This document shows positions 1 to 52,244 of a stretch of 64,000 nucleotides of DNA, piece after piece (the stretch's first letter is position 1; every line of letters starts with the position of its first letter). Source of the DNA: Corallococcus sp. RDP092CA. GTDB lineage: Bacteria; Myxococcota; Myxococcia; Myxococcales; Myxococcaceae. Position numbers and translations under genes: made by a program. The stretch spans positions 32,643 to 96,642 of the forward strand of contig NZ_JAYESI010000001.1 in NCBI RefSeq assembly GCF_041903675.1, written 5' to 3'. A model generated the notes under the pieces. The model did not search any database. It was not told the origin of the DNA and saw only the letters and a list, made by a program, of their open reading frames with translations.

Positions 1-470
1 CCGCCGAGCTGGAGCGGCTCATCAAGGGCAAGAACGAGCCGCCTCCGCCCTCCGCGGACGACATGATCGAGGACGAGGAGGAGGAGCCCCTGCCGGAGCA
101 GGAGGAGCCGCCGCTCGACGACATGCAGGACGAGGCTCCCGAGGAGGCCGAAGAGGAGGAGCCCATGGAGGAGGCGGACGAGGACGAGGGCGCCTCGCTC
201 TACCTCGTCACCGAGTCCGGCGAGCAGGAGAAGATCGTCAAGGACCGCTACGTCATCGGCCGCGGCAAGCACTGCGACTTCGTCATCAACTCCGGCAAGG
301 TGTCGCGCGAGCACGCCGTCATCGCCCGCGACGGCAGCGACTTCTACATCGAGGACCTCGGCTCCTCGAACGGGACCTGGTTCAACAAGCAGCGCATCAA
401 GCGCCGCAAGGTCGAGGACGGGGACGAGTACTTCATCTGCAGCGAGAAGATCCGCCTCGTCATCCACTGA
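1..470 (+). CDS. FHA domain-containing protein, 5'-truncated by the window edge. The N-terminus is acidic and low-complexity.
   Basis: The open frame runs in from position 3. The C-terminal FHA signature is ...YVIGRGKHCDFVINSGKVSREHAVIARDGSDFYIEDLGSSNGTWFN. The N-terminal half is acidic (EEEEP...EEAEEEE). Confidence 0.75.
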   Translation, partial: AELERLIKGKNEPPPPSADDMIEDEEEEPLPEQEEPPLDDMQDEAPEEAEEEEPMEEADEDEGASLYLVTESGEQEKIVKDRYVIGRGKHCDFVINSGKVSREHAVIARDGSDFYIEDLGSSNGTWFNKQRIKRRKVEDGDEYFICSEKIRLVIH

Positions 471-555
471 CCGCGGGATGACGCAGGGTCCCACGGTGCG
501 ATGGTCTTGTTCAGGAATTGACGGGCTCGGGGCCTCCATTGTTTGATGGGGGTCG

Positions 556-576
556 CCTGCTCCCCATGGGAGCAGG
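556..576. promoter_or_regulatory. Perfect 9-bp inverted repeat CCTGCTCCC-CAT-GGGAGCAGG, 7 nt upstream of the cpaA ATG.
   Basis: Read directly from the sequence. It overlaps the expected RBS region of the 583 ORF. Confidence 0.3.
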
Positions 577-582
577 TGCCGA

Positions 583-1119
583 ATGACACCTGTTCAGCTC
601 GCGCTGTGGACGATTCTGGGAGTGGCCCTGGTGATCTCGGTGGTGACCGACGTGCTGCGCCGGCTCATCCCGAACACCGTGACCTATCCGCTCATCGTGC
701 TGGGGCTCGGGGTGCGCGGGGTGTCCGAAGGGGTGGGCGGGTTGGAGTCGGGGGTGGTGAGCGGGCTCCTGGCGGGCGCGGGACTCGCGCTGCTGCTGGT
801 GCCGGGTGCGCTGCGCGGGCGCATGGGGTGGGGTGACGTCAAGCTGATGGCGGGCGTGGGCTGCGCGTTGGGCTTTCCCACGGTGCTCGCGGCGGCGGCC
901 TTCATCTCGCTCACGGGCGCGTTGCAGGCCATCGTCACGCTGCTGTGGCAGGGGGCCGTCTGGGACACGCTGGCGGCGGTGGCCCGTCGCTGGGCGGTGC
1001 GGATGAAATGGATGCGGGAGGAAACCTCGAGTGCTCCCGCGCGACACATCCCCTACGGCGTCTCCATCGCGCTCGGGACTTTCTGGGCCATGTGGTGGCA
1101 GCAACAACATCTGGGATAG
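583..1119 (+). CDS. cpaA: Prepilin peptidase of the A24 family (CpaA/TadV-like), Flp-pilus type.
   Basis: Polytopic membrane protein with the first catalytic Asp in a D-x4-R-IPN context (VTDVLRRLIPN). The second catalytic Asp lies in GWGDVKLMAG. The size is ~178 aa. Confidence 0.8.
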   Translation: MTPVQLALWTILGVALVISVVTDVLRRLIPNTVTYPLIVLGLGVRGVSEGVGGLESGVVSGLLAGAGLALLLVPGALRGRMGWGDVKLMAGVGCALGFPTVLAAAAFISLTGALQAIVTLLWQGAVWDTLAAVARRWAVRMKWMREETSSAPARHIPYGVSIALGTFWAMWWQQQHLG

Positions 1120-1164
1120 CGCGTCGGCGTCCGGGCGCGCGCACGCAAGAAGGGGATTCACACG

Positions 1165-2613
1165 ATGTCCACTCGCTTCACGCAAGCCCTGGCGCTCGGC
1201 GCCGTCGTCACCCTGGTGGCCAGTGCCCCCGCCCTGGCCCAGGAGGGCAGCTCCGTCAGCCTGGGGGTGGGTACCCAGAAGGTGCTCACCATTCCCGGCC
1301 TCAGCCGCGTCGCGCTGGGCGATCCGTCCATCGCCGAGGTGAAGACGCTCGGCACCGGCCAGCTGCTCGTCACCGGTAACCAGGAGGGCAAGACGACGCT
1401 GCTCGTCTGGAAGTCCTCGGGTCAGCGCATCAGCTACCTGGTGACGGTCCGCAAGCAGGACCCGAACGAGGTCATCTCCGAGATCAAGCGCCTCCTGGGG
1501 GAAATCGAAGGCGTGTCCGTGCGGATGGTGGGCGACCGCATCTACCTGGACGGTCAGGCCTACACCACGCAGGACGCGGACCGCATCGAGCAGGTGGTGA
1601 GCCTGTACCCGAACGTGAAGTCGTTCGTGAAGATCGCCCCCAACGCCAAGAAGCTGGTGGCGCAGAACCTGAACGCGGCCTTCCAGAAGGCGGGCTTGAA
1701 GAACGTGCAGGCCAACGTGGTGGGCGCGACCATCTTCCTGGAGGGCTCCGTGGAGAGCCAGCAGGACCTCCAGAAGGCGGAGCTCATCACCAAGGCCATC
1801 GGTGAGAAGGTGGAGAACCTGCTCGTCGTCGGCATCAAGCGGATGATCCTCTCCGAGGTCCAGTTCGTCGAAATCCGCCGCAACAGCCGCGACCGCTACG
1901 GCATCAAGTACCCCACGGACATCACCGGCTCGCTGACGGCCACCGTGAACCTGAACAAGGCGCTCATGCCGTCCGGTGACGCGGTGTCCAACCTCATCAT
2001 GGGCGCGACGGGCGGCTCGGACCTGAGCATCGGGTTCCAGGCCAACGACGGCTACGGCCGCCTGCTGGCGCAGCCCAAGCTGGTGTGCGCCAGCGGTGAG
2101 AAGGCGGAGTTCCTCGCCGGCGGCGAGGTGCCCATCCCCCTCATCACCAACACGCAGTTCACGGTGGAGTACAAGCCCTACGGCGTCATCCTGAACATCC
2201 GCCCCACCGCGGACCGCAACGGCAACATCCAGACCGAGGTGGAGGCGGAGGCCTCTGAAATCGACACCTCCGTGTCCGTGTCCTTCGGCGGTTCGTCCGC
2301 CATCCCCGGCTTCCGCACCCGCAAGGTCAAGACGAACGTCACCGTGCGTCACGGTGAGACCATCGTGCTGTCGGGCGTGTTCAGCCACGACGAGCAGAAG
2401 GCCGTCGCGAAGCTGCCGGGCCTGGGGCACATCCCCATCGTGGGCGAGCTGTTCAAGAACCGCGCGTTCGACTCCACCAAGCGCGAGCTGGTGATCTTCG
2501 TCACCCCGCGCATCGTGAACCCGGACTCGGACAAGGTCCGCAGCATCATCGAGGACGTGAAGACCCGCTACAAGCAGGCCCGCTCCGAGGTGAACTTCAA
2601 CATCTTCGACTGA
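1165..2613 (+). CDS. cpaC: Secretin of the Flp/Tad pilus system (CpaC/RcpA-like).
   Basis: Signal peptide MSTRFTQALALGAVVTLVASAPALAQE. C-terminal secretin domain GGEVPIPL...VILNIRPT...GFRTRKVKTNVTVRHGETIVLSGV...LPGLGHIPIVGELF. RBS AAGGGGA precedes the ATG. Confidence 0.85.
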   Translation: MSTRFTQALALGAVVTLVASAPALAQEGSSVSLGVGTQKVLTIPGLSRVALGDPSIAEVKTLGTGQLLVTGNQEGKTTLLVWKSSGQRISYLVTVRKQDPNEVISEIKRLLGEIEGVSVRMVGDRIYLDGQAYTTQDADRIEQVVSLYPNVKSFVKIAPNAKKLVAQNLNAAFQKAGLKNVQANVVGATIFLEGSVESQQDLQKAELITKAIGEKVENLLVVGIKRMILSEVQFVEIRRNSRDRYGIKYPTDITGSLTATVNLNKALMPSGDAVSNLIMGATGGSDLSIGFQANDGYGRLLAQPKLVCASGEKAEFLAGGEVPIPLITNTQFTVEYKPYGVILNIRPTADRNGNIQTEVEAEASEIDTSVSVSFGGSSAIPGFRTRKVKTNVTVRHGETIVLSGVFSHDEQKAVAKLPGLGHIPIVGELFKNRAFDSTKRELVIFVTPRIVNPDSDKVRSIIEDVKTRYKQARSEVNFNIFD

Positions 2614-2639
2614 GGCCCCCGCGCCATCACGTCGGATCC

Positions 2640-2700
2640 GGTCCGGGCCGGCCCCGTCCCTGCTTCAGCGGGGGAGGGTGCCGGCCCGTTCGTTTCCGGG
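2640..2700 (+). terminator. GC-rich imperfect hairpin between cpaC and cpaF (GGGCCGGC ... GCCGGCCC). It is a possible attenuator or weak terminator.
   Basis: Inverted repeat read from the sequence. There is no T-tract, so this is speculative. Confidence 0.2.
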
Positions 2701-2747
2701 CAGCAGGCGGGCGAGCGTCGCAGGAGTCTTTGAGGTCGTAGGAGGGC

Positions 2748-4529
2748 TTGGTAGCATCCCGCCCCATGTTTCTCATCACGTTGACGGAGAAGGGCGGCGG
2801 CTCGGAGCAGCGGGAGTTTCCCAAGAACGAGATCACGATCGGCCGGCTTGCCGGCAATGACATCGTGCTCGCCAAGGGCAACGTCTCCAAGACCCACTCC
2901 CGCATCGTCGAGAAGGACGGTCGCCTCATCATCGTGGACATGAAGTCCACGAACGGCACCTTCGTGAACGGCAAGAAGATCGCCGGGCCCATGGTGCTCA
3001 AGCCCAGCGACCAGGTCTCCATCGGCGACTACATCCTCAACGTGGAGCCGCTGGACGACGCCGCGCAGGACGAGCCCGTCGACGAGGGCTACGACGAGGA
3101 GCAGGGCGAGGAGGCCTACGAGGAGGAAGAGGCCTACGAGGAGGAGGAGCCCTACGAGGAGGAGCCCGCGCCCGCCCCCGCGGCTCCCAGCCGCATGCCC
3201 GCGTCCATGGCCGCGGCCATGGCGAAGAACAAGCGCAAGGTGGACCCCCGGCTGGAGCGCTACTCGCGGCTCCAGAAGGAGATCCACGACCGGCTCATCG
3301 AGTACCTGGACCTGCGCCGCATGGACATGGACCGGCTCGGGGACGAGGAGCTCTGGCGCCGCACCGAGAAGGCCATCCGGGACATCATCGACCAGATGGA
3401 GGCGGACCAGGAGCTCCCCGGGGACGTGGACCGGGAGGAGCTGCTCACCGACGTCATCAACGAGGCGCTGGGCCTGGGGCCCCTGGAGGCGTTCCTCGCG
3501 TCGGAGGAGATCAGCGAGATCATGGTGAACCACGCCAACCAGATCTACATCGAGCGCAAGGGCAAGCTGACCCTGTCGGAGAAGACGTTCTCCTCCAACC
3601 AGGCGGTGCTCGGCGTCATCGAGCGCATCGTGGCGCCCATCGGCCGCCGCATCGACGAGTCCAGCCCGCTGGTGGACGCGCGCTTGAAGGACGGCAGCCG
3701 CGTGAACGCCATCATCCCGCCGCTGGCGCTCAAGGGCCCCTGCATCACCATCCGCAAGTTCAAGAAGGACGCGCTGAAGATCCAGGATCTCATCAAGTAC
3801 AAGACCATCACCGCGCAGATGGCCGAGTTCCTGGAGATGTGCGTGACGGCCCGGCGCAACATCGTCATCTCCGGCGGCACGGGCTCCGGGAAGACGACGA
3901 CGCTGAACATCATCAGCTCCTTCATCCCGGAGGGTGAGCGCATCGTCACGGTGGAGGACGCCGCGGAGCTGCAGCTGCCGCAGGAGCACTGGGTCCAACT
4001 GGAGAGCCGCCCGCCCAACCTGGAAGGCAAGGGCGCCATCACCATCCGCGACCTGGTGAAGAACTGCCTGCGCATGCGGCCGGACCGCATCGTGGTGGGC
4101 GAGTGCCGCTCCGGCGAGACGCTGGACATGCTCCAGGCCATGAACACCGGCCACGACGGTTCGCTCACCACGCTGCACGCGAACACGCCGCGCGACGCCA
4201 TCGCCCGGCTGGAGACGATGGTGCTCATGTCCGGCATGGAGCTGCCGGTGAAGGCCATCCGCGAGCAGATCTCCAGCGCGGTGCACCTCATCGTGCAGCA
4301 GACGCGCTTCTCCGACGGGACGCGCAAGATCTGCTTCATCACGGAGGTGTCCGGCATGGAGGTCGACATCGTGACCCTCCAGGACATCTTCTATTACAAG
4401 CAGGACGGCTTCACGGAGGACCACAAGGTGCGCGGGCGCTTCGTGGCTTCGGGCTTCGTGCCGAAGTTCTACGACGAGCTCCAGCGCAAGGGCATCCCCG
4501 TGAACATGAGCATCTTCCGCGAGGACTGA
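2748..4529 (+). CDS. cpaF: Tad/type-IV secretion ATPase CpaF/TadA-like, with an N-terminal FHA domain and an acidic EEAYEEEE repeat linker.
   Basis: N-terminal FHA (ITIGRLAGNDIVLAKGNVSKTHSRI...STNGTFVNG). Walker A GGTGSGKTTTLN. VirB11/CpaF-type core (TVEDAAELQL, GHDGSLTTLHANTPRDA). An ATG at 2766 is an alternative start to the TTG at 2748. Confidence 0.85.
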   Translation: MVASRPMFLITLTEKGGGSEQREFPKNEITIGRLAGNDIVLAKGNVSKTHSRIVEKDGRLIIVDMKSTNGTFVNGKKIAGPMVLKPSDQVSIGDYILNVEPLDDAAQDEPVDEGYDEEQGEEAYEEEEAYEEEEPYEEEPAPAPAAPSRMPASMAAAMAKNKRKVDPRLERYSRLQKEIHDRLIEYLDLRRMDMDRLGDEELWRRTEKAIRDIIDQMEADQELPGDVDREELLTDVINEALGLGPLEAFLASEEISEIMVNHANQIYIERKGKLTLSEKTFSSNQAVLGVIERIVAPIGRRIDESSPLVDARLKDGSRVNAIIPPLALKGPCITIRKFKKDALKIQDLIKYKTITAQMAEFLEMCVTARRNIVISGGTGSGKTTTLNIISSFIPEGERIVTVEDAAELQLPQEHWVQLESRPPNLEGKGAITIRDLVKNCLRMRPDRIVVGECRSGETLDMLQAMNTGHDGSLTTLHANTPRDAIARLETMVLMSGMELPVKAIREQISSAVHLIVQQTRFSDGTRKICFITEVSGMEVDIVTLQDIFYYKQDGFTEDHKVRGRFVASGFVPKFYDELQRKGIPVNMSIFRED

Positions 4530-4536
4530 CGCGCCC

Positions 4537-6753
4537 ATGCCAACCCTGGTCGTCCGTCACCCTGACGGCACTGAGCACGAGCACGAAATCGCGGGCGAGC
4601 TGAAGATCGGCCGCCAGCAGGGCAATGACCTCGTCCTCACGGAGGGCGGCGTGTCGCGGCAGCACGCGCGCGTCTACGTGGAGGGTGGCACCGTCTACGT
4701 GGAGGACGGGGGCAGCCAGAACGGCACCTTCGTGGACGGCGAGCGCATCGCGGGGCCCACGGCGCTGACGCCGGCCTCGCAGGTGCTGCTGGGCGACTAC
4801 GAGCTGAAGCTCAAGGGCGGCGGCCGGGGCACCGGCGGTCGCCGCGCGGCGACGCCCGCGCCCCAGGACCCCTCGACGCTCGCGGACGCGCCCGTGAAGG
4901 GCACGCGCGCCATGCCCAGCATTCGCGCCAAGGCCACGCAGAAGGGCGCGGCGAAGCCCGAGGGCGCGCTGGCGAAGCGTCCCTCGCGGCCCCAGCGGGC
5001 GCTGGGCGGCGCGGAGGCGGGCGCGAGCTCGGGGCCGGTGCTCAAGGGCATGACGGGGCCGTGGGCCGGCAAGTCCTATCCCATCCAGGGCACGCTGCTG
5101 GTGGGCCGGGCGCCGCCGGCGGCGGTCATCCTGGATGACGACTCCGTGAGCCGGAGGCACGCCGAGGTGAAGCGCGAGGGCAGCGCCGTGCTCGCGCGCG
5201 ACCTGGGCAGCGCCAACGGCACCCTGCTCAACGGGGAGCTGCTGGGCGAGGAGTTCGTCGACCTGCAGGCAGGGGACGTCCTCCAGTTCGGCGTGGTGGA
5301 GATGACCTTCGAGGCCTCGGACACGCCCTCGCGCCGTCCCGGGGCGGCGGGCGCGCCTCCGCCTCGCCGGGGGGCCCGCGGGGCGGCGCCGGCGGCGGAC
5401 AACAAGCGCAAGCTGATGGTGGTCGCGGGCGGCGTCATCGCGCTGCTGGCGGTGGCGGCGGTGGTGAAGTCGTCCATGGGGCCGGCGCAGAAGGCCCCCA
5501 AGGCGGGCCCGGCCGCGCCGCTGGATCCCGCGCAGCAGGTGCAGGACCTGCTCAGCGAGTGCCGCTCCTACTCCTCCAACGAGATGGGCGCCCCCGACTG
5601 GGCCCGCGCGGAGAAGGCGTGCGACCAGGCGCTGGACATGGACCCCATCAACGCCGAGGCGAACACCCTCGTGCGGCGCATCAAGCTGGAGAAGGAGGCC
5701 TTCGACAACTTCGAGGCCGCGAAGAAGGCCATCGAGCTCAACCGCGAGCAGCAGGCCCTGGAGCTGCTGCGCAAGATTCCGAAGGAGAGCGAGTACTTCC
5801 GCCGCGCCCGCTCCAAGGCGAAGGAGACGGCCGAGCGGTTCGTGGAGCGCGCGAAGGACGACTGCAAGCGCTACCTGAACAACTCGCAGTGGGGCCCCGC
5901 GGTGCAGCGCTGCCAGCAGTACATGGAAGTGTGGTGCCAGAAGCAGAGCAAGGAGGACCTGGAGCCCCCCATTGGCCAGACGCTCCGCCTGGAGGGCTTC
6001 CTGCGCAAGAACGACTGGCGCCCCAAGGACGCCATGTTCGTGAAGTTCCTGGTGGCCCGCACGCGGGTGGACCGCAACGCCCCGCCGTGGACCTGCCCGG
6101 TGTCCGCCATCCTGCAGGAGGACGGGCTGGGCGTGGATCAGGCCAGCGAGGTGCGCGCCATGTTCGCCAAGCGCTACGCCCCGAAGCTCATCCAGGCGGC
6201 GATGATGGACTACTGGGCCGGCCGTGGCAGCGAGGCCATGGCGACGCTGCAGAAGCTGCGCGCGAAGGAAGACCAGGCGCAGTACCACCAGCTCGCGGAC
6301 GATCTCATCCGCGACGTGTCCAACGTGGATCAGCTCTTCAAGACGGGCGAGAGCGCCATCACCAACGACGACCCCGAGCGCGCCGTCACGCCGTTCACGG
6401 ACGCGCTGGCGACGGACAAGCGCATCATGGCGGAGCTGGCGGAGTCGCACCTGTCCTTCTACCGGAAGAACATGTTCCAGGACCTGGCGGCCGCGGCCTA
6501 CCAGCGCGGCAAGCACTTCGCGGACCGCGAGGACCGCCGCCGGGGCTGCCGCATCTGGAAGCTGGGCTTCGAGTTCTACAAGGGCAACACGGACCTGAAC
6601 CGCGTGGTGGCCTTCTGCTCCACGCAGGCGCAGAACACGTTGAACAACGCGGGCAGCTGTTCGGACCTGGCGGCGGTGGAGGACTACGCCGTGCCGGGTG
6701 ACGGCATCGCGGAGCAGGTGGCCGCGAAGAAGGCCGAGCTGAAGTGCCGCTGA
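4537..6753 (+). CDS. Membrane protein with two FHA domains, one TM segment and a helical TPR-like periplasmic domain.
   Basis: FHA1 (KIGRQQGNDLVL...SQNGTFVDG) and FHA2 (LVGRAPPAAVILDDDSVSRRHAEV...SANGTLLNG). TM helix LMVVAGGVIALLAVAAVV. The C-terminal domain is helix-rich with Cys residues. There is an 8-nt gap after the cpaF stop, suggesting an operon. Confidence 0.75.
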   Translation: MPTLVVRHPDGTEHEHEIAGELKIGRQQGNDLVLTEGGVSRQHARVYVEGGTVYVEDGGSQNGTFVDGERIAGPTALTPASQVLLGDYELKLKGGGRGTGGRRAATPAPQDPSTLADAPVKGTRAMPSIRAKATQKGAAKPEGALAKRPSRPQRALGGAEAGASSGPVLKGMTGPWAGKSYPIQGTLLVGRAPPAAVILDDDSVSRRHAEVKREGSAVLARDLGSANGTLLNGELLGEEFVDLQAGDVLQFGVVEMTFEASDTPSRRPGAAGAPPPRRGARGAAPAADNKRKLMVVAGGVIALLAVAAVVKSSMGPAQKAPKAGPAAPLDPAQQVQDLLSECRSYSSNEMGAPDWARAEKACDQALDMDPINAEANTLVRRIKLEKEAFDNFEAAKKAIELNREQQALELLRKIPKESEYFRRARSKAKETAERFVERAKDDCKRYLNNSQWGPAVQRCQQYMEVWCQKQSKEDLEPPIGQTLRLEGFLRKNDWRPKDAMFVKFLVARTRVDRNAPPWTCPVSAILQEDGLGVDQASEVRAMFAKRYAPKLIQAAMMDYWAGRGSEAMATLQKLRAKEDQAQYHQLADDLIRDVSNVDQLFKTGESAITNDDPERAVTPFTDALATDKRIMAELAESHLSFYRKNMFQDLAAAAYQRGKHFADREDRRRGCRIWKLGFEFYKGNTDLNRVVAFCSTQAQNTLNNAGSCSDLAAVEDYAVPGDGIAEQVAAKKAELKCR

Positions 6754-6812
6754 GCGGCGCTCCGGTGCGGGGCTTCATGGACAGGGGCCGGGAGGCGCGC
6801 TAGGGACGGGGG

Positions 6813-9518
<2,706 letters not shown>

Positions 9519-9522
9519 GCCG

Positions 9523-9566
9523 AAAAAAGCGCGGGAGGGCGCCCACCCCCGTAGGCGCCCTCCCGC
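9523..9566. terminator. Intrinsic-terminator-like hairpin with a 13-bp perfect GC stem, flanked by AAAAAA (TTTTTT on the minus strand). It sits between the convergent polA and 9847-10371 genes.
   Basis: GCGGGAGGGCGCC-(10 nt)-GGCGCCCTCCCGC immediately after the polA stop. Read on the minus strand the hairpin is followed by GCTTTTTTCGG. Coordinates are approximate (+/-1). Confidence 0.5.
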
Positions 9567-9846
9567 AGCCCTCCAGCCCCACTCCTCCGACAAAACATGC
9601 CGATCCGTCCGACCGGCGGAGCGCGCGGACCCCCATCCACGCGTTCCGGCGTTCGAACCTGTGTGCGCGCTCACCGCTCCCCCGAGCAGGAGCACGCTCC
9701 CTCAAGGCGCGTCGCGGACCCCCATCCACGACAGCGCTCCCTCCCGCCAGCCCCCGGACCCTTCCACGGAGGGAAGGGTCAAGCCGGACGGATCGGCAAA
9801 CCCTTGTGACAAAACCCCGGCGCCTCCTGCGCGCCGCGACTCCTGC

Positions 9847-10371
9847 TCAATGCATGGCGGACCGCTCGTCGCGGCGGCCCATGGGGGGCCGGCGCGCATG
9901 AGAGGGCCGCTCGAAGTACTCCACCACCAGGCCGCCGAAGGGCACCCGCGGCCCATCCGCCTTCGGGTCCGCCAGCCGCTGGAGCAGCGCCACCGCGCTG
10001 TCCACGGCCTCGTCGAGCGCGCGGTGGATGCGCTGGCGCTCCGCGTCCCCACCGCCCAGCACCTCCAGGGCGTCCACCAGGCACCGCCGCAGCAGCGCGA
10101 ACTCGTCGTGCAGGGCCCGCGCGCCGCGCTCCGGCGCCAGCCGCAGCACCGCGCGGGTGCGCGTCCAGGGGCTGGATTCCACGCCCTCCAGCGTCAGGCC
10201 CAGCTCCCGGACGAAGGGCTCCACCAGTCCGTCCAGCAGGCTGGGGCCCGGCGCGCCCTGGCCGTCGTGCGCCGCCAGCCGCATCCGCCGCCACAGCGCC
10301 GCGATGCGCTCCGGCTGCCTGGTGAAGACCCGGGCCACCCCGGCCTTCTTCCGTCCCCGCTCCGCCGCCAT
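9847..10371 (-). CDS. Hypothetical protein.
   Basis: ORF with a plausible ATG (MAAERGRKKAG...). It is convergent with polA and ends at the hairpin. No motif was recognised. Confidence 0.4.
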   Translation of the reverse strand: MAAERGRKKAGVARVFTRQPERIAALWRRMRLAAHDGQGAPGPSLLDGLVEPFVRELGLTLEGVESSPWTRTRAVLRLAPERGARALHDEFALLRRCLVDALEVLGGGDAERQRIHRALDEAVDSAVALLQRLADPKADGPRVPFGGLVVEYFERPSHARRPPMGRRDERSAMH

Positions 10372-10571
10372 GTCCGTTGTCGTCCGCATCGCGAACAGAC
10401 ACATAGCAAGTGCTTTGCCAAGGCCAGACGTGCGCTGGAGCCCAGTGAATCCGCTGACTTGGGCAGCAGGACGACCCCGAAGGGAGCGCGCAGGACGTAA
10501 ATCCTACGGGGCGGCTGTTGAAAGGCGGGGGACAGGGGAAGTTCCTTCCCTGCCTGGGAACGCCGCGCCTC

Positions 10572-11855
10572 TCAGTGGAGCGTTGGCTTGGGCGGGCGGC
10601 CCGACGGGGCCTCGCCGTCCAGCTCGTACTCGCCGCTGGACGACTCCGGCTCCTCGTCCTCCGCGTCCAGGTCCTCCGGCAGGCCCGCACCCGACTCCAG
10701 CGCCTCCGGCGCGCCCTCCAGGGCCTCCGGCTGGCGGGGGGCGGACGGATTGGACGAGGCCGGCGGGGTGGCGCCGGGCCATTCCGGCCAGGGGAGGGCG
10801 GGGGACAGCGGCTCGGCGCCGTCCGTGGGCACGGGGCCGGCCGCGCGGGCGGCCGCGAGCAGGCGCAGCGCGGCGTCCTCCGCGGCGTCCTCCGCGGCAA
10901 GCTCCGTCATGCGCGCGGCCTTCTGCCGCGTGCGGCGCACGAAGGCGGCCACGCACAGCACGGAGGCGGTGAGCCACAGGAGCGCGGAGCTGGTGGTGAG
11001 CGGCAGCCAGCCGTACCGGGCCGCCAGCCCCTCACGCCAGTCCTGCTCCTCCAGGAGCAGCGACGAATGGAAGGCCTTGCCGAAGGCCTGCTCGAAGGGC
11101 TCGCCCGCGCTCACGCCGTCCACCAACTGGCCCAGGGCCTGCGCGCCGTACTTGCCGTTGAGGAAGGCCACGAAGGCGGCGCTCTGCGCGTAGGCGATTT
11201 CGACGTCCGCGGGCACGTCCGGCCAGTTGTCGGCCAGGTCCTCGAAGTGGAGGACGCGCTCCTGCGTCACCGCGCGGAAGAGGGCGCTGTAGTGGGCGAC
11301 GGAGTAGCGCTCGTCGGTGAGGTTCTGCGCCACGCCCTCCTGGAACCAGCGCGGCCACGACTTCGCCAGCTGGCCCAGCGCCACGTGCGCCAGCTCGTGC
11401 CGCAGCGTGGTGGGCCCTTCCTCGTCGGTCAGGCTCAGCGCGTCCAGCAGGATGATCTGGTGCCCGGGGTAGGCGAGCGCCACGGCCCAGCCCGGGGGCT
11501 TGCCGCCGGGGAGCGCCAGCGCCTCGAACTCCTGGCGGCCCACGCCCAGGCGGATCTCCGTGGTGCCCGGCCAGTCGCGCCCCAGCATCGCGCCGAAGGC
11601 GTCCCGCACGCCCTCAATCTGCCCGGCCAGCGCCTTCGCCGCGCCCGCCGCCTTCGCGGTGTGCAGGATGACGAAGCGCCGGGTCCTCAGCTCGCCCGCG
11701 ACGAGGGTGGGCCGGGCGTGAGGCACGAGCGCCCTGTCGGTGACGACGGCCTCCGTGGCGTGGATGCCGCGCGGACCTTCTTCCTGCGCGAACACGCCCG
11801 GCGCGGCCAGCAGCATCATCAGGAAGGCGAACAGGCGGAGCATGCGTGGCCTCAC
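10572..11855 (-). CDS. Secreted/membrane-anchored zinc metallopeptidase-like protein (peptidase MA-like, HExxH).
   Basis: Signal peptide MRPRMLRLFAFLMMLLAAPGVFAQ. HELAHVALG motif. A later TM segment (LWLTASVLCVAAFV) is followed by an acidic Pro-rich tail. Confidence 0.7.
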   Translation of the reverse strand: MRPRMLRLFAFLMMLLAAPGVFAQEEGPRGIHATEAVVTDRALVPHARPTLVAGELRTRRFVILHTAKAAGAAKALAGQIEGVRDAFGAMLGRDWPGTTEIRLGVGRQEFEALALPGGKPPGWAVALAYPGHQIILLDALSLTDEEGPTTLRHELAHVALGQLAKSWPRWFQEGVAQNLTDERYSVAHYSALFRAVTQERVLHFEDLADNWPDVPADVEIAYAQSAAFVAFLNGKYGAQALGQLVDGVSAGEPFEQAFGKAFHSSLLLEEQDWREGLAARYGWLPLTTSSALLWLTASVLCVAAFVRRTRQKAARMTELAAEDAAEDAALRLLAAARAAGPVPTDGAEPLSPALPWPEWPGATPPASSNPSAPRQPEALEGAPEALESGAGLPEDLDAEDEEPESSSGEYELDGEAPSGRPPKPTLH

Positions 11856-12151
11856 GGTCCACCAGAGATAACAGCCTCGACCGCCGCCGCATCAACCCCC
11901 TCCACCTTCAATCGCTTACGGCGCGACGTGTCACCTGCCACGAGTGTCACCTGGCGACGTGGCACACCCAGCTTTTTGGCGATGAATTCCACCAGGGCCG
12001 CATTCGCTTCTCCATCCACGGGCGGCGCGGCCAGTTGGAGCTTCAGCTGGCCGTCGTGCTCGCCCACCACCTTGGTGCGGGACGCGCGCGGCTGGACGAG
12101 CACCGTCAGCTCCACCCCGTCGGATACGGCCTTGAGCCAGGGGGCGGGCAT
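11852..12151 (-). CDS. DUF167/YggU-family small protein.
   Basis: 99 aa, LTVLVQPRASRTKVVGEHDGQLKLQLAAPPVDGEANAALVEFIAKKLGV, typical of the UPF0235 family. There is a 4-nt overlap with the upstream gene. Confidence 0.65.
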   Translation of the reverse strand: MPAPWLKAVSDGVELTVLVQPRASRTKVVGEHDGQLKLQLAAPPVDGEANAALVEFIAKKLGVPRRQVTLVAGDTSRRKRLKVEGVDAAAVEAVISGGP

Positions 12152-12160
12152 GCGCGGGTG

Positions 12161-12688
12161 CTAGTCGTTGGAGGTGGCCTTCTTCTGCGACAGGAACGCG
12201 ACGTTGTCCTCCACGCGCGCGTAGTCGCGGTCCGCGAAGGCGGGCGCGGCGAAGGTCTCCAGCAGCTTGCGGTGGGCCTCCACCACCGAGCGCACCTGCG
12301 ACTCGAACTGGGTGCGCTGGCGCTTGAGCTCGTTGATGTCCTCCACCACCTGCACCAGCCGCTGGTGCGCGCCGTGGACGATCTTCTCCGCCTGGTGCTC
12401 CGCGTCCGCGATGATGATCTCCGCTTCCTTCTTCGCGGCGTCCTTCAGGTCCTCGCTGATGCGCTGGGCGGTGACCATCGTCTCCTGGAGGGTGCGCTCG
12501 CGCTCCTGGTGCTGCTCGAGCCGCGCCTGCGTGCGCTTCAGCTCCTCCTTGAGCGCGATGTTCTCCTTCACGACCTCCTCGAACTCGCCGGCGATCAGCT
12601 CCAGGTACGCGCCCACTTCGGGACGCGCGAAGCCGCGCATCACCGTCTCGAAGCGCTTCTGCCGGATGTCGAGGGGGGTGATCTTCAT
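12161..12688 (-). CDS. divIVA: DivIVA-domain cell-division/polarity protein.
   Basis: N-terminus MKITPLDIRQKRF...RGFARPEVGAYLELIAGEFEE, followed by a long coiled coil. Confidence 0.8.
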   Translation of the reverse strand: MKITPLDIRQKRFETVMRGFARPEVGAYLELIAGEFEEVVKENIALKEELKRTQARLEQHQERERTLQETMVTAQRISEDLKDAAKKEAEIIIADAEHQAEKIVHGAHQRLVQVVEDINELKRQRTQFESQVRSVVEAHRKLLETFAAPAFADRDYARVEDNVAFLSQKKATSND

Positions 12689-12796
12689 GCGCCCCAGTCT
12701 AACCCATACACGCGCGCACTCCAGGAATCGGCCCGGAGGCCGGGCCGCGGGGCCGCGCCGGCACAGCGGGAGGGAGGGCAGGCGGGCAGGCGTGTC

Positions 12797-13366
12797 TCAG
12801 GGCGCGGCGGCCGGAGCGGCTTCCCACTGCGACGCCACCGAGCGCGCGGCGTTCTGCACCGCGTAGCCCACGCGGCTGTCGGCGGCCACGTCCTGCACCA
12901 CCCGGCGGGCGGTGGGGGTGCGCTGGTAGAGCAGCCCTCCCAGCGCCTGGATCTTCAGCTCGTCCGGCAGGCGCGGGTGGCGCACGACGTTGCCCAGGAT
13001 CTCCTCCGCGCGGCGATGCTGGAACAGCGCCACCGCGCGCAGCGCGGCCTGCTGGATGCGCGGGTTCGGGTCCCAGATGAACGCGGCCAGCGGGTCCAGG
13101 GCGCGCGGGTCGCCCAGGAGCGCCAAGTCCTCGATGGCGAGCGCGCGGATCTCCTCCGGGCCGGGCTCCGCCGCCCACAGCAGGCCCCGGAGGAGGGCGA
13201 CGTCCTGCGCGCTTCCCTCCGCCGGCGGCCGGGCGGGGGCCGCCGCCGCGGGGGCCCTGTCGGCCTTCAGGGAGGCCCTGGGCGCCGCGGCCGGAGGGGC
13301 TGAAGACGGGGCCTGGGCGTGCGCGGCGGCGGTCAGGAGCAGGGCGGCGGCGAGGAGCGGTCGCAT
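12797..13366 (-). CDS. Periplasmic HEAT-repeat protein.
   Basis: Signal peptide MRPLLAAALLLTAAAHAQA. HEAT/PBS-lyase-like repeats (ALLGDPRALDPLAAFIWDPNPRIQQAALRAV). Confidence 0.6.
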   Translation of the reverse strand: MRPLLAAALLLTAAAHAQAPSSAPPAAAPRASLKADRAPAAAAPARPPAEGSAQDVALLRGLLWAAEPGPEEIRALAIEDLALLGDPRALDPLAAFIWDPNPRIQQAALRAVALFQHRRAEEILGNVVRHPRLPDELKIQALGGLLYQRTPTARRVVQDVAADSRVGYAVQNAARSVASQWEAAPAAAP

Positions 13367-13513
13367 GGGGCCGTTCTACCCGAATCCCGGGAAGCCCGGC
13401 AGCGCCGCGCTGGGGCACCCCCCGGGTCACCCGCGACATTTTCTTGACGGGATCCCCGGCTGTGGGAGTTTGCCGGTGCTACAGGCGTGTTGCGAACGGA
13501 GGACCGATTCACC

Positions 13514-14029
13514 ATGGGTGCGGCAGTCGCGAGCTGGCAGACACTGGAGAACGTCACGGTGGAGTGCACCCACTGCGGCGTGATGATGACGCTCCAGCCC
13601 GGAACCCGGGTGAAGTACTACCGGTGCGGTTCATGTCACCGCTGGGTGTCCAGCACCTACAGCGAGGTCTTCCGCGCGGACGCGAAGATGCGCACGCACC
13701 CGGTGAAGGACACCTCGGACGCGGACGCGCGCTTCGTGGAGCTGAAGGACCGGCTGGACAAGTGGCTCACCGCCGTCCAGGAGCAGTGCCCGTACCAGAC
13801 CCTGGGCGTGTCGCCGCTGGATCCGCCGGACGTGATTCGCGCGCGCTTCCACGCGCTGGCCCTGGAGCGGCACCCGGACCGGGGCGGCTCCGCGGAGCAG
13901 ATGCGCGAGGTCAACGCCGCCTACGAGCGCATCCTCAAGCACCGTCAGCGCAAGCGGCTGGAGGCCATGGCGTCCGGGACGTCCACGCGCGCCACGCCCG
14001 CGTCCGTCCTGCCCGCGCGCAGCAGGTAG
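13514..14029 (+). CDS. J-domain (DnaJ-like) protein with an N-terminal zinc-ribbon.
   Basis: CxxC...CxxC (CTHCG...CGSCH), then a J domain with the HPD motif (YQTLGVSPLD...LALERHPDRGG). A GTG at 13487 is an alternative start. The 3' end overlaps the convergent gene by ~85 nt, so the C-terminus is uncertain. Confidence 0.65.
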   Translation: MGAAVASWQTLENVTVECTHCGVMMTLQPGTRVKYYRCGSCHRWVSSTYSEVFRADAKMRTHPVKDTSDADARFVELKDRLDKWLTAVQEQCPYQTLGVSPLDPPDVIRARFHALALERHPDRGGSAEQMREVNAAYERILKHRQRKRLEAMASGTSTRATPASVLPARSR

Positions 14030-14955
14030 AGCCAGAAGAGGACTCCCAGCGACAGGCCCAGCCCCACCTTGGCCCAGGTGGGGAACAGGTGGCCCGGGGA
14101 GATGAAGCCCTCCACCACGCCGATGCAGGCGAGGAAGGGCGCGCAGCCCACCACCAGCTTCACGGCTTCACGCCCGCGCGTCTGGAGCGCCTGCGCGCGC
14201 GGCAGCTCGCCCGGGTCGATGAGCGCCTGGCCCACCATCAGCCCGGCGCCGCCGGAGATGACGATGATGGACAGCTCCACCGGCCCGTGCGCGGCGATGA
14301 AGTCCAGGAAGCCCGCCGTCATGCCCTCGCGGACGCACAGCGCGCCCACCGCGCCGATGAGCACGCCGTTGTTCACGAGCGTGAAGATGGGCCCCACGCC
14401 CAGCAGGATGCCGGACGCGAACGCGAACAGCGTGACGGTGAGGTTGTTGGTCGCGATGCCGGACGCGACGGCGTTGGGCGGCGCCACGGACAGCAGGTCA
14501 TCCGTCCACATGCGCCCCTGCGCCACGTAGCGCCGCACGCCCTCCGGCACCAGCAGCTCCGCGCCTCGCGGCTCCAGCGCCACCACCAGCGCGCCCAGCA
14601 GCAGCCCCAGCACCAGCAGGCCCGCGCTCACGCCCACGAAGCGGGCCTCGCGGCGCAGGGTGGCGGGGAAGTCCCGCCGGAAGAAGGCGCGCGTGGAGGC
14701 CCAGCGCTCGCGCGGCGGCTGGTAGATGGCGCCATACGCCTGCGCGCACAGCTGGTTGAGGAAGCGGTGCGCGTCCGTGCCCGGGTAGAACGTCTGCGCC
14801 TGCGCCAGGTCCGCGGCCGCGCGCCGGTACAGCGTGTCCAGCGTGCGCAGGTCCGTCAGGCCCAGCCGGCCCGCGCGCTGGCGCGTCAGCAGCGCCTGGA
14901 GCGCGTCCCAGTCCGGCCGGCGCCGCGTGACGAAGGTGGGCAGGGGCGCGGCCAT
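13945..14955 (-). CDS. SpoIIM/DUF95-family integral membrane protein.
   Basis: Multi-TM protein, domain architecture typical of the 'stage II sporulation protein M' family (the call rests on overall similarity, not a signature motif). The start overlaps the RDD gene stop (ATGTCA). Confidence 0.65.
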   Translation of the reverse strand: MAAPLPTFVTRRRPDWDALQALLTRQRAGRLGLTDLRTLDTLYRRAAADLAQAQTFYPGTDAHRFLNQLCAQAYGAIYQPPRERWASTRAFFRRDFPATLRREARFVGVSAGLLVLGLLLGALVVALEPRGAELLVPEGVRRYVAQGRMWTDDLLSVAPPNAVASGIATNNLTVTLFAFASGILLGVGPIFTLVNNGVLIGAVGALCVREGMTAGFLDFIAAHGPVELSIIVISGGAGLMVGQALIDPGELPRAQALQTRGREAVKLVVGCAPFLACIGVVEGFISPGHLFPTWAKVGLGLSLGVLFWLYLLRAGRTDAGVARVDVPDAMASSRLR

Positions 14956-14956
14956 G

Positions 14957-15742
14957 TCAGTGGACCGCCTTCGCGCGCGTGCGCAGGAAGGACTCCGTGG
15001 CCTCCGGGGACTGGAGCACCCGGGTGCGCTCCTCGTCCGTCAGGGCCGCGCCCACGCGGTCCACCAGCCGGCCGCCCAGCCGCCGCCGCACCTCCGGCTC
15101 CAGGCCGGGCGCGCGCGCGAGGAACGCCAGCACCAGCTCCACGTCCTCCGCGTCCAGCGGCCGCTGCACGGCGGCGTCCGTGGCGGGGGACCCCGCGGGC
15201 GCGGCGTCCGCCGTGGCGCCTTGCGTGTACTTGTCCAGGTCGATGGCCTCCTCGCGCACCAGCACCGTCCCGGCGAGCAGGTCCCCCAGCCGGCGGTGCC
15301 GCGCGTCCAGCAGCATGGTGATGCAGCCCGTGGCGTAGAGCACCGGCAGGAAGTCCACCGCGCGGCACAGGTTCCTCACCGCGCTCTCGAAGAAGCCCAC
15401 CGGCGAGCCGTCCTCGCGCACCACGCGGATGCGCAGCGCGCGCTTGCCGGGTGTCTGTCCATGGAAGAACACCTCCGCCAGCGTCCAGTACAGCCATTGC
15501 GTGGCGAAGAGGCCCACCGCCAGCAGCGTCTGCGTGAGCCCCGACAGCGCCTGGAAGGCCCCCAGCACGTCGGACACCAGCAGGGTGATGACGAAGTAGA
15601 GCGCCACCCAGAAGAAGAACAGCAGGCTCGCGTCCACCAGCCACGCGAGGCAGCGGTAGCCGATGCCGGCCACGGGCAGGGAGAGGGCCACCCGCTCGGG
15701 CGTGGCGACGTCGACATGGGGTGCGGGGGCGGAGGGAGTCAT
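14957..15742 (-). CDS. RDD-family membrane protein.
   Basis: Start chosen at the internal ATG (MTPSAPAPHV...). RDD-family membrane domain (ESAVRNLCRAVDFLPV). The longer ORF upstream of this ATG looks like GC-frame noise. Confidence 0.7.
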   Translation of the reverse strand: MTPSAPAPHVDVATPERVALSLPVAGIGYRCLAWLVDASLLFFFWVALYFVITLLVSDVLGAFQALSGLTQTLLAVGLFATQWLYWTLAEVFFHGQTPGKRALRIRVVREDGSPVGFFESAVRNLCRAVDFLPVLYATGCITMLLDARHRRLGDLLAGTVLVREEAIDLDKYTQGATADAAPAGSPATDAAVQRPLDAEDVELVLAFLARAPGLEPEVRRRLGGRLVDRVGAALTDEERTRVLQSPEATESFLRTRAKAVH

Positions 15743-16129
15743 GCGTGCGAGACGCACAGCATACGCCCTTCGCGTCCAGGACGTGCACCTGCGCACGCGT
15801 GGGCGCCCGCGCACGGGCATTGGACGAAACACCAAGCAAAACATCCAGATCCGGACGCGAAGCGGATGTCCCGCGCTCGACAGCGAACACGACCTGACGG
15901 GCGAGACCCTGGATTTCGATGCGATTCGTGCGCAATTGACAGTCCCGCCGGGGTCCGTTCGCATGAGGCCTTGGATGATGTTAGGGTCTCGGTTGGCTGG
16001 ATTTGCTTGAAACGAAAAAGGAGGAGTGGCCTGGACGGGCCAGTTCGGCAGTCGCAAGCGCAGTCCGCAGGGCAGCACTGACAGGACCCCCGGATGGAGT
16101 TGAAGCGCGGTTCTCGCACGCTCATCACA

Positions 16130-16144
16130 GGCGGAAGTTCCGCC
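16130..16144. promoter_or_regulatory. 15-bp perfect palindrome GGCGGAAGTTCCGCC, ~85 nt upstream of the LuxR-type regulator gene.
   Basis: Read from the sequence. The geometry suits a dimeric HTH binding site. Confidence 0.3.
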
Positions 16145-16226
16145 GCGGTTCCACCGACTCCGGGGCAGGTTGAAGTCGACAGGTAGCATTGAAAGCAATT
16201 CGCCACGACGGCTGGGGGGCCATCGC

Positions 16227-16913
16227 ATGGCAGCGAATCAATCGGCAGTTCGTATTTCGATTCTCGAAGGACCGTGGGCGGCCTGGCAGGGCCTGTCCGA
16301 GGGCCTCCGGGGTGAGGGTCATTCCACTTCAGTGACGCGCGACGTGCGCGGCTTCCTGGACGGGCTCGGCACGGATCCACCGCAAGTGGCCATCCTCGAC
16401 GTGGAGAGCGACGGCGAAGCCGCCATCGGCTGCTCCGTGACGGAGGGGCTCAACCTGCTGCGCGAGGCGCGCAAGCGCCGGCTGGAAGTGCGCATGCTGC
16501 TGCTGTCCGCGGTGAGCACGCCGGAGGTCATCTCCCAGTGCTTCGACGAAGGGGCCTCGGGGTACCTCTTCCGCGCGGGGCTGGGCGTGAACGCGGTGTC
16601 CTCCGCGGTGCAGTCGTTGGTGCGGGGCGAGCGCCTCTTCCCGGTGCAGCTGCTGCGCAACGACTTCGAGCATCCGCCGGTGACGTCACCCACGGCGAGC
16701 GTGCTCCTGCTGCTCACGCAGCGCGAGCGCGAGGTGCTGCAATACGTCGCGGGCGGGGCGGACAACCTGAAGATCGCCGCGCACCTCCAGATCGCGGAGC
16801 GGACGGTGAAGTCACACGTCACGCAGCTCTACCGCAAGCTGGGCGCGGAGAACCGCACCCAGCTCGCCTTGCGCGCCTGCCACCTGGGCGTCAGGCCTCC
16901 TCCGGATCTCTAG
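16227..16913 (+). CDS. LuxR/FixJ-family response regulator (receiver-like N-terminus, LuxR HTH C-terminus).
   Basis: C-terminal LuxR HTH (LTQREREVLQYVAGGADNLKIAAHLQIAERTVKSHVTQLYRKLG). The N-terminal receiver-like domain has acidic residues (ILDVESDGEA). Confidence 0.75.
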   Translation: MAANQSAVRISILEGPWAAWQGLSEGLRGEGHSTSVTRDVRGFLDGLGTDPPQVAILDVESDGEAAIGCSVTEGLNLLREARKRRLEVRMLLLSAVSTPEVISQCFDEGASGYLFRAGLGVNAVSSAVQSLVRGERLFPVQLLRNDFEHPPVTSPTASVLLLLTQREREVLQYVAGGADNLKIAAHLQIAERTVKSHVTQLYRKLGAENRTQLALRACHLGVRPPPDL

Positions 16914-16973: not shown

Positions 16974-17201
16974 TCAGTTCTTGTTGCGGGCCGCGTCCTC
17001 TTCCATCTTCTTGCGGAGGCTCAGGGGGCGCATGTCCGTCCAGACCTCCTTGATGTACTCCAGGCACTCGGCCTTCAGGCCCTGCTTGCCGGCGTCCTTC
17101 CAGCCCAGCGCGTTCTCACGGTCCGCGGGCCAGATGGAGTACTGCTCTTCGTGGTTGACGACGACCTTGTAGATCGTCGTGTCTTCGCGCTCGTCGCTCA
17201 T
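16974..17201 (-). CDS. MbtH-like protein.
   Basis: [49 protein letters not shown] matches the MbtH signature (three Trp, SxWP). GGAG RBS precedes the ATG at 17201. Confidence 0.8.
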
Positions 17202-17387
17202 CGGGGTGTGACTCCTGAAAGCAGGGGACCCCCTTTCGTCGCACACCCGGGGAAAAGCGGTCAAGGTAGGCGGACGCAGCAGCCCCGCGCCCTTCCCGGG
17301 AGGGCGGATTCATGCCCGCCCGTCGGCATCGCGCCGGGGAAGCCACATTCGTGACACGGGCGATGCGGGGCGCGGATACTCGGCCGC

Positions 17388-27421: not shown

Positions 27422-28909
27422 TCATCGCAGGGGCAGCTCCACCAGGGCGGTGGAGAAGGTGTCGAAGGTCTCGTTGGCGGTGGGCTTCGTGCCCTCGTCC
27501 ATGTTGCCGAGCATCAGCGCGAAGACGACGCGCGGGTGCTCCGGGTCGTTCGGCCGCTCCGCCACGCCCACGAAGCACTTCTGGCCCGTGAGCGTGCCCG
27601 TCTTCGCGCGGATGCGGCCGGAGGTGGACTGCGTCGTCTTGCGGCCCGCCAGCGTCCCGTCCACGCCCAGCACCGGCAGGCTCTCCAACAGCGCGGCGCC
27701 GTAGGGCTCCTGGAGGCTGGTGAGCAGCACCCGCGCCATGCCCCGGGGCGTGGCCAGGTTGTAGCGGGACAGGCCGCTGCCATCCACCGGGCGCAGGTCC
27801 TTGGCGGGCACGCCCCGGCGCGCCAGCTCCGCGGCCAGGGCGGTGCGCAGCGCGGCGTAGCCCTCCTGGCCGGTGCGCTCGCGGGCGAAGCGCATGCCCA
27901 GCCGCTCCGCGTACAGGTTGAGGCTCTCCTTGTTCGTCGCGCGCACCAGCTCCGACAGGGGCGGGCTGATCAGCTCCACCAGCGGCGACGGCATGGGGGG
28001 CAGGGGCGGGGTGGGGGCCTCCAGCGACAGGGGCAGCCGCGAGACTCCGTGCCGCGCCAGCGCGTCATCCACGCACGCGGCCAAGAGCGCCTCCGGCGCG
28101 TCCACCGACAGCTTCACCGCGGCGGACTGGGGGCACGGCCCGCCCGACGGCGAGCGCCAGGTGCAGCGCACGCCGCCACCGCCGCGCACGCAGGCCAGGT
28201 TCGTGCGCTCGGCGTTGACGTCCACGCTCACCACCGCCGCCAGCGTGGCGAAGGTGGGGTTCCACTGGACGGCAGGGGCGTCCGCGCAGGTGGCGCCGGG
28301 GGCGCGCGACAGCGCCAGGTCCACCACGTTCTCGCGGAAGACGAAGGGCGTGGGCGCGGCGCTGTAGGCATAGGCCGCGTCGTCCCAGGCCCAGCCCGGG
28401 CCCAGCCCGCCGTCCACGCCGTCCGTGCCGGAGATGCGCACGCTGCCGCGCCACTGGTGGATGCCGCGCGCCTGGAAGGCCTCGGCGATGCGGTCGCACG
28501 CGAGCGCCGTCTCCGGGAAGCGCCACGAGCCCAGCGACGGGTCTCCGGACGCCTGCGCCACCACGTCGCCCAGGAACAGGCCTCCGGTCTGCGAGCCCTC
28601 CAGGAACACCGGCGTCACGAAGCGGAAGTCCGCTCCCAGCGCGGACAGCGCGGCGGAGGTGGACACCACCTTCATCGTGGACGCGGGCAGCAGCCGCACG
28701 TTCTCGCGGTGGGTGAAGAGGGGCTCGCCGGTGCGCGCGTCCACCACGGACGCGCCCGCGAGCGCGCCGTCCGCCTCCAGCGTCTCCAGCAGGGCCCGGG
28801 TCACCCCGGAGAGGGTGTCGCGCGGGGCGCCCTCCGGCGTGGTGGGCGTGTGGGTGCAGGCGGACAGGCAGAGGGCGACGACGCTGGCGGGCAGGGGTGC
28901 GCGGCGCAT
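27422..28909 (-). CDS. D-alanyl-D-alanine carboxypeptidase/endopeptidase (PBP4/DacB, S13), lipoprotein.
   Basis: Lipobox LCLSAC. STMK active-site motif (LPASTMKVVSTSAALSALG). Length ~495 aa. Confidence 0.8.
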   Translation of the reverse strand: MRRAPLPASVVALCLSACTHTPTTPEGAPRDTLSGVTRALLETLEADGALAGASVVDARTGEPLFTHRENVRLLPASTMKVVSTSAALSALGADFRFVTPVFLEGSQTGGLFLGDVVAQASGDPSLGSWRFPETALACDRIAEAFQARGIHQWRGSVRISGTDGVDGGLGPGWAWDDAAYAYSAAPTPFVFRENVVDLALSRAPGATCADAPAVQWNPTFATLAAVVSVDVNAERTNLACVRGGGGVRCTWRSPSGGPCPQSAAVKLSVDAPEALLAACVDDALARHGVSRLPLSLEAPTPPLPPMPSPLVELISPPLSELVRATNKESLNLYAERLGMRFARERTGQEGYAALRTALAAELARRGVPAKDLRPVDGSGLSRYNLATPRGMARVLLTSLQEPYGAALLESLPVLGVDGTLAGRKTTQSTSGRIRAKTGTLTGQKCFVGVAERPNDPEHPRVVFALMLGNMDEGTKPTANETFDTFSTALVELPLR

Positions 28910-29099
28910 GGCGGCGGCCACCGTATGTCGCGTGCCAGGGAGTGTCATGGATTCCCGCCAGCGGGGTGGGGCGGAGGCGTGCACGGTTGGACGGCGCGCG
29001 GGCAAACGGCCCCGCGCGAGGGCTATTCCCGGCCCGCGTCGTCCAGCCACACCGAGTGCCTTGACGCGGCGTCACAGGCCCCCCATCCTGCCGCGCCCC

Positions 29100-52242: not shown

Positions 52243-52244
52243 CC

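Follow-up and report, generated by a model that had tools for sequence, protein, structure and literature searches.

In Myxococcus xanthus, the Kil proteins come together at the site of contact when prey is met. There, the KilP pilus is polymerised through KilC and powered by KilF, Tip2-4 are matured by KilA, and KilD clusters first, independently of the rest of the machine (PMC8460266, PMC12075869). Seef et al. (2021, eLife; PMC8460266) defined kil cluster I as MXAN_3102-3108, of which 3104 encodes an FHA protein, 3105 KilA, 3106 KilC (BON, pilus-N and secretin domains), 3107 KilF (FHA and P-loop), and 3108 KilD (FHA and TPR), and Herrou et al. (2025, Nat Commun; PMC12075869) likewise list kilACF as mxan_3105-3107 and kilD as mxan_3108. 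This report deals with the corresponding locus at the start of a 64,000-nucleotide stretch of Corallococcus sp. RDP092CA (NZ_JAYESI010000001.1, positions 32,643 to 96,642; hereafter the window), where an original prediction, made from the sequence alone, had proposed a Tad/Flp-like secretion module rich in FHA domains and resembling this cluster. Already published are the Kil system as such, its decoration with FHA domains, its division over separate loci and the fact that Corallococcus has it.

A Corallococcus orthologue of M. xanthus kil cluster I very probably occupies positions 1-6753 of the window with its distal five-sevenths, equivalent to MXAN_3104-3108, which would supply four parts of the Kil machine. 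The assignment is made because the locus is positionally orthologous to that of M. xanthus in gene order and flanks. The M. xanthus locus (L004) runs from glyS over two genes for proteins of 538 and 694 aa, a 286-aa FHA protein, and proteins of 179, 482, 595 and 740 aa to polA, and the same nine-gene order, glyS-Lp1-Lp2-FHA-kilA-kilC-kilF-kilD-polA (Lp, lipoprotein), was found in Corallococcus. The part upstream of the window (glyS, two lipoprotein genes, then the FHA gene) is contained in a Logan contig (L001), which is 99.75% identical to window positions 1-16753 and in which window position 1 corresponds to position 5465. Identities to the M. xanthus proteins are 47% for Lp1, 39% for Lp2, 70% for the FHA protein, 73% for KilA, 87% for KilC, 88% for KilF, 56% for KilD and 74% for PolA. 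KilD, encoded directly 3' of kilF, aligns with its M. xanthus counterpart over the full length, and for every gene the domain content agrees with that given in Supplementary file 1 of PMC8460266. The proposed match to kil cluster 1 and the synteny and sequence comparison suggested for checking it have thus come out positively, with identical gene order and flanks, protein identities of 39-88% and matching domains. Both loci comprise seven genes in one order between glyS and polA with common domain architectures (a short KilA, a KilC that lacks N0 and carries BON, an FHA-CpaF fusion as KilF, and a KilD with two FHA domains and TPR), and both are set apart from the platform and pilin genes. They differ in genus and in the degree of change, KilD and the lipoproteins being far more diverged than KilC and KilF.

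The arrangement is conserved in the whole family. A scan with a KilD alignment against one genome per species yielded 63 loci, all of them from Myxococcaceae/Archangiaceae-type taxa. The nine-gene order was kept in all 35 loci with full flanks, which span Corallococcus, Myxococcus, Pyxidicoccus, Citreicoccus, Archangium, Cystobacter, Hyalangium and Vitiosangium, and the remaining loci were cut by contig ends. Within the genus, KilD is 91% identical to the homologue of Corallococcus sp. EGB and 90% to that of C. coralloides KYC2213. A distant Myxococcales locus from a metagenome-assembled genome (L067), with a KilD-like protein of 23% identity, comprises genes for an AMIN protein, KilA, KilC, an FHA-KilF, a protein with two FHA domains and another FHA protein; platform genes were not found at this locus. 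The two lipoprotein genes (MXAN_3102/3103 orthologues; L001 1238-5016) encode proteins of 509 and 748 aa with lipoprotein-type signal peptides, for which no Pfam or NCBIfam family was matched. They diverge fast (47% and 39% identity versus 87-88% for KilC/KilF), yet they are syntenic in 35 of the 35 full-flank loci.

The GC content in the window is 66-73%, and genes were therefore called by third-position GC (GC3 frame analysis), with domains assigned by Pfam. In this way, positions 1-9518 were found to be filled by six co-directional genes on the plus strand. Five of them lie within 1-6753, so that the span given in the original prediction agrees with the gene boundaries. The first, at 1-470, is the MXAN_3104 orthologue, represented by its 3' part with the last 155 codons (open reading frame 3-470; FHA, E 9e-20), the frame of which is open to the window edge. 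The gene is cut there, and the full protein of 284 aa is encoded in L001 (5080-5934); the kil unit thus extends upstream beyond the window. Pfam also recovered the three Tad-type components named in the original prediction, a prepilin peptidase, a CpaC secretin and a CpaF ATPase whose N-terminus carries an FHA domain.

The prepilin peptidase, kilA, lies at 583-1119 and encodes a short TadV/CpaA-type protein of 178 aa (Peptidase_A24, E 6e-16) that has no methyltransferase domain. GxGD-type prepilin peptidases contain two aspartates, and this pair is represented by Asp23 and the G-W-G-Asp85 motif, both of which are conserved in all alignable loci. Comparison of KilA with sequences in the PDB returned pentatricopeptide-repeat matches, which were judged spurious. 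The Tad-type secretin encoded by kilC (1165-2613) is short, with 482 aa, and contains pilus-N (T2SS-T3SS_pil_N, E 9e-15), BON (E 2e-9) and Secretin (E 5e-42) domains. Its closest solved structures, 8jvb (1e-52) and RcpA 8odn (6e-44), are Tad secretins, and no Secretin_N or N0 family was matched by Pfam, consistent with the description of KilC in PMC8460266.

The ATPase gene kilF is located at 2766-4529. The FHA domain (aa 29-93, E 1e-16) is joined by an acidic linker to the T2SSE motor domain (aa 241-537, E 8e-66), and aa 133-577 match the solved Caulobacter CpaF (9e24/8rkd) at E ~1e-127, as compared with 1e-11 for PilT. Across 60-61 loci, the Walker A, Asp-box, Walker B and His-box motifs do not vary. 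By sequence, KilF is a CpaF/TadA-type hexameric motor ATPase. An alternative TTG start lies at position 2748; the ATG at 2766 is more likely, because the M. xanthus alignment starts at residue 7 and the called gene comprises 587 aa. The deposited kilF starts at this ATG as well, and no exact-sequence match was obtained for a protein begun at the TTG. The fifth gene, kilD (4537-6753), encodes an accessory protein of 738 aa with two FHA domains (E 2e-36) and a weak TPR match.

Four FHA domains are therefore distributed over three proteins, the ATPase being one of the three, which bears out the FHA count of the original prediction. Phosphothreonine binding by FHA domains relies on the canonical G-R, S-x-x-H and N-G-T residues, and these are intact in all four. 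From the sequence, control of the machine by phosphothreonine might be plausible.

The original prediction had further described a machine with split loci, with no pilin, TadB/C platform or CpaE in the window, and both points were supported, the former by the positional orthology with kil cluster I. Among about 50 window open reading frames, Pfam gave no T2SSF, Flp, TadE, CpaB, ParA/CpaE, MinD-type or Pkinase match. A six-frame scan of the window for the Flp motif, by which alone frames below 80 aa were covered, gave a single match inside an unrelated larger open reading frame. Absence of TadZ/CpaE has been reported for Kil as well (PMC8460266). In Supplementary Data 1 of PMC12075869, two C. 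coralloides genomes are listed with contiguous KilA/C/F/D (gene indices 4692-4689 and 4935-4932), contiguous KilB/G/H (4611-4609 and 4844-4842), and KilP and tip genes present. KilB/G/H are thus some 80-90 genes away from KilD in C. coralloides versus about 1,540 locus tags in M. xanthus, and from the gene indices the second cluster is therefore placed about 80-90 genes past kilD in the direction of polA. If the present genome is collinear with C. coralloides, KilB/G/H would be expected a few tens of genes past the 3' end of the window.

On the basis of orthology with M. xanthus, KilC would form the outer-membrane secretin of the Kil pilus machine in Corallococcus, and KilF would be the FHA-fused CpaF motor that powers KilP pilus polymerisation. 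KilA would act as the short prepilin peptidase, by which some of the minor-pilin tips are matured in M. xanthus, and KilD as an accessory protein that is first recruited to the prey contact site, with the platform KilG/H, CpaB (KilB), the pilins and the tips presumably encoded elsewhere, as in M. xanthus. By this analogy, contact-site assembly and prey killing would be the best explanation for the locus. Several observations weigh against the assignment: KilD is only 56% identical to the characterised M. xanthus KilD, cluster II and the KilP and tip genes are absent from the window (which a split system would predict), neither a kinase nor a phosphatase nor a phosphosite has been described for Kil, and experiments in Corallococcus were not found.

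It is improbable, but conceivable, that the locus is a true Kil orthologue with another main role in Corallococcus (e.g., in development, in dealings with kin or in attacking fungi) and is dispensable for the killing of bacterial prey. Such a role would fit the fast divergence of KilD (56%) and of the lipoproteins, the lack of functional data for Corallococcus in the literature, and the induction of the M. xanthus kil genes by starvation (PMC8460266). However, the core parts KilC and KilF are 87-88% identical with all catalytic motifs intact, the synteny is fixed family-wide, and Corallococcus is generally known as a predator. In addition, the full pilin and tip repertoire has been tabulated for C. 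coralloides (PMC12075869).

It is even less probable that the region represents part of an ordinary adhesive Tad/Flp pilus locus, which would serve surface attachment and not predation. KilA, KilC and KilF are genuine homologues of TadV, RcpA/CpaC and CpaF, and with the Caulobacter Cpa and Aggregatibacter Tad systems the locus shares a CpaF-type motor, a secretin of the RcpA/CpaC type and a short peptidase of the CpaA/TadV type in which both catalytic aspartates are kept. In contrast to these systems, no adjacent flp, tadB/C, cpaE/tadZ, cpaB, tadD or tadE/F/G accompanies it. More widely, neither the 64-kb window nor the 5.4 kb upstream of it yielded flp, tadB/C, tadZ/cpaE, tadD, tadE/F/G or rcpB/C. 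As an outcome that would speak against Kil, the original prediction had named a complete tad locus with an flp pilin immediately upstream; glyS and the two lipoprotein genes were found there instead. The Corallococcus ATPase also differs from the Cpa and Tad motors by its N-terminal FHA domain and by the company of two further FHA proteins. Canonical Tad loci have neither the FHA-ATPase fusion nor KilD nor the neighbouring FHA protein, all three of which are hallmarks of Kil (PMC8460266), KilD being without a counterpart in Cpa/Tad systems (PMC8460266, Supplementary file 2), and the locus is positionally orthologous to MXAN_3102-3108. It is hardly credible that a type III or type II secretion system is encoded here, for although all FHA proteins match Yop-YscD_cpl (E 1e-9 to 3e-29) and the secretin also matches the type II and type III secretin models, the ATPase is of the CpaF type (E 1e-127 versus 1e-11 for PilT), the closest solved secretins are those of Tad, and no other type III or type II gene was found in the window. 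The Yop-YscD_cpl matches were rejected as evidence for type III secretion, as this is an FHA-fold family whose matches always lie under a stronger FHA match.

With the Kil assignment preferred, two of its components deserve a closer look. KilD is composed of a first FHA domain (aa 1-95), a disordered linker, a second FHA domain (aa 165-260), a linker that contains a hydrophobic segment, and a C-terminal domain (aa 330-738) that is all-helical and TPR-like. The hydrophobic segment, aa 292-310 (KLMVVAGGVIALLAVAAVV; 5410-5466, plus strand), is preceded by a basic patch and is a putative single transmembrane segment by Kyte-Doolittle hydropathy, with a 19-aa mean of 2.49 (2.05-2.84 in 25 homologues and 2.6-3.0 in seven divergent ones), and the next-best stretch of 19 aa reaches at most 1.4. 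The C-terminal domain (5524-6750, plus strand) contains ten cysteines (C342, 362, 443, 459, 467, 520, 671, 694, 708 and 737) that are invariant in 80 sequences and form no CxxC motifs. In this alignment, 10 of 10 cysteines of the domain were invariant versus 47 of 399 other residues (Fisher p 1.3e-9), and every homologue has only 0-2 cysteines N-terminal of the hydrophobic segment. The C-terminal domain may thus be periplasmic and disulfide-bonded, and because of these hydropathy and cysteine statistics, KilD is proposed to be bitopic in the inner membrane, with its two FHA domains in the cytoplasm and its disulfide-rich TPR-like domain in the periplasm. Against this topology, KilD was called cytoplasmic in PMC8460266 and PMC12075869. 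AlphaFold2 did not model the hydrophobic segment as a helix (predicted local distance difference test below 50), a result that counts neither for nor against a transmembrane helix.

Proteins with an FHA domain, a transmembrane segment and a periplasmic scaffold are known from type III (YscD/PrgH) and type VII secretion (EssC N-terminus), and FHA-regulated type VI systems from Fha1/TagH. KilD differs from these in its C-terminal domain, which is an all-helical TPR-like solenoid with ten invariant cysteines and is not BON-like and ring-building. Its FHA domains keep the canonical phosphothreonine-binding residues, and in this comparison its membrane insertion is a predicted feature.

The linker between the two FHA domains carries a short conserved island, T123-R-A-M-P127 (4903-4917, plus strand), in which T is found in 79 of 80 sequences, R/K, A and M/L/I/V in 77 of 80 each and P in all 80; in the remaining linker, the mean frequency of the top residue is 0.43. 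An equivalent, T-R-M-I, is present in the 23%-identical protein of the distant locus L067. Many FHA domains prefer pT-x-x-hydrophobic, which the island fits with a hydrophobic residue at pT+3. The T-R-A-(M/L/I/V)-P island is therefore a candidate phosphothreonine site, which might be bound by an FHA domain and drive clustering.

The other component is the upstream FHA protein, the MXAN_3104 orthologue of 284 aa, in which a CopG-like N-terminal module is followed by a conserved central helix, then by an acidic linker and the C-terminal FHA domain; the 5' half of the gene lies outside the window. The FHA domain of this family is almost invariant, with the residues GR..SREH..SSNGT invariant in 80 homologues. 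The N-terminal module of about 50 aa, encoded outside the window, is conserved as well, and its sole sequence match in the PDB, in register, was the ribbon-helix-helix repressor CopG; AlphaFold2 predicted an extended segment followed by two helices. Foldseek with the model of this family returned FHA domains only (EmbR, FhaA and GarA among the best) and thus bears on that domain alone. The protein could be a phospho-dependent ribbon-helix-helix/FHA regulator, against which it must be held that the CopG match is weak (E 0.09). The combination of a CopG-like N-terminus with an FHA domain is reminiscent of CopG-family repressors and of EmbR of Mycobacterium tuberculosis. EmbR has a different domain order and DNA-binding fold, and DNA binding by the upstream FHA protein is putative.

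A joint reading of these features is tentative, and we consider it rather unlikely in its full form. In it, KilD would be a bitopic transducer with two phosphothreonine-binding FHA domains inside, one transmembrane helix and a periplasmic TPR-like domain with five disulfides, which would contact the secretin or CpaB, or would sense that the envelope is perturbed at the prey contact. Phosphothreonine in the linker would be read by the FHA domains of KilD, of KilF or of the upstream FHA protein and thereby nucleate the cluster at the contact site, and the CopG-like/FHA protein would couple the signal to kil transcription. If true, this reading would tell what determines where Kil assembles; the spatial determinants are still called unknown by a 2026 preprint.

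Downstream, the kil unit probably extends into polA, the gene for DNA polymerase I (6813-9518, plus strand; DNA_pol_A, E 9e-154). The gap from kilF to kilD measures 7 bp and that from kilD to polA 59 bp, and polA lies directly 3' of kilD in all 35 full-flank loci. A terminator scan gave no terminator-like site between kilD and polA, the first being a 17-bp GC-rich hairpin 3' of polA at 9530-9567, where the co-directional block ends. The T-tract of this hairpin is on the minus strand, and it is therefore taken to serve the convergent gene at 9847-10404. For M. xanthus, the DiscOperon 2026 preprint gives the order glyQ-glyS, two unknown genes, FHA, kilA-kilC-kilF-kilD and polA, with kilA-kilC-kilF-kilD-polA predicted as a single operon and the FHA gene as monocistronic. 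Co-transcription of polA with kilA-kilD is thus probable, and a predation operon seems to share its transcript with an essential gene of replication and repair. A scan of positions 1-10000 for sigma-70 promoters had no match, which is uninformative for a myxobacterium with 70% GC.

In ten independent draft assemblies (L005, L006, L008, L010, L011, L013-L015, L018 and L022), the locus was found on a contig of about 8.8 kb each that runs from kilA to just past polA (about window 583-9560). The contig ends suggest that assembly breaks recur, on one side near the 470-583 spacer or the acidic low-complexity stretch of the upstream FHA gene, and on the other near the hairpin at 9530-9567.

Elsewhere in the window, the gene at 30863-33139 (plus strand) encodes a protein of 758 aa that is a bacterial homologue of the eukaryotic Major Vault Protein (Vault repeat families and MVP_shoulder, E 3e-45). 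Further 'eukaryote-like' proteins are a lipoxygenase (46880-48862, minus strand; E 5e-61), a deoxyhypusine-synthase-like protein (51978-53267, plus strand; E 4e-34) and a 651-aa protein with a terminal FYVE zinc finger (54095-56050, minus strand; E 4e-6). An MbtH-like gene lies at 16974-17264 (minus strand), and no nonribosomal peptide synthetase gene was seen among the Pfam-scanned window open reading frames. A D-Ala-D-Ala carboxypeptidase S13 gene (27422-29050, minus strand; E 4e-65) overlaps an RdgC-like gene (28425-29750, plus strand; E 3e-9) by about 600 bp, both with high GC3, and the start of one of the two is probably mis-set.

By this identification, a predation locus that is conserved throughout the family, known since 2021 and already tabulated for C. 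coralloides is documented in one more genome. Its use is that of comparative material, as the alignments show which parts of the least understood Kil components are constrained. In KilD, these are the membrane-like segment, the ten invariant cysteines and the T-R-A-(M/L/I/V)-P island, and in the MXAN_3104 family the CopG-like module and the nearly invariant FHA domain. Together, they allow specific and cheap mutational tests of how Kil is recruited to prey contacts.

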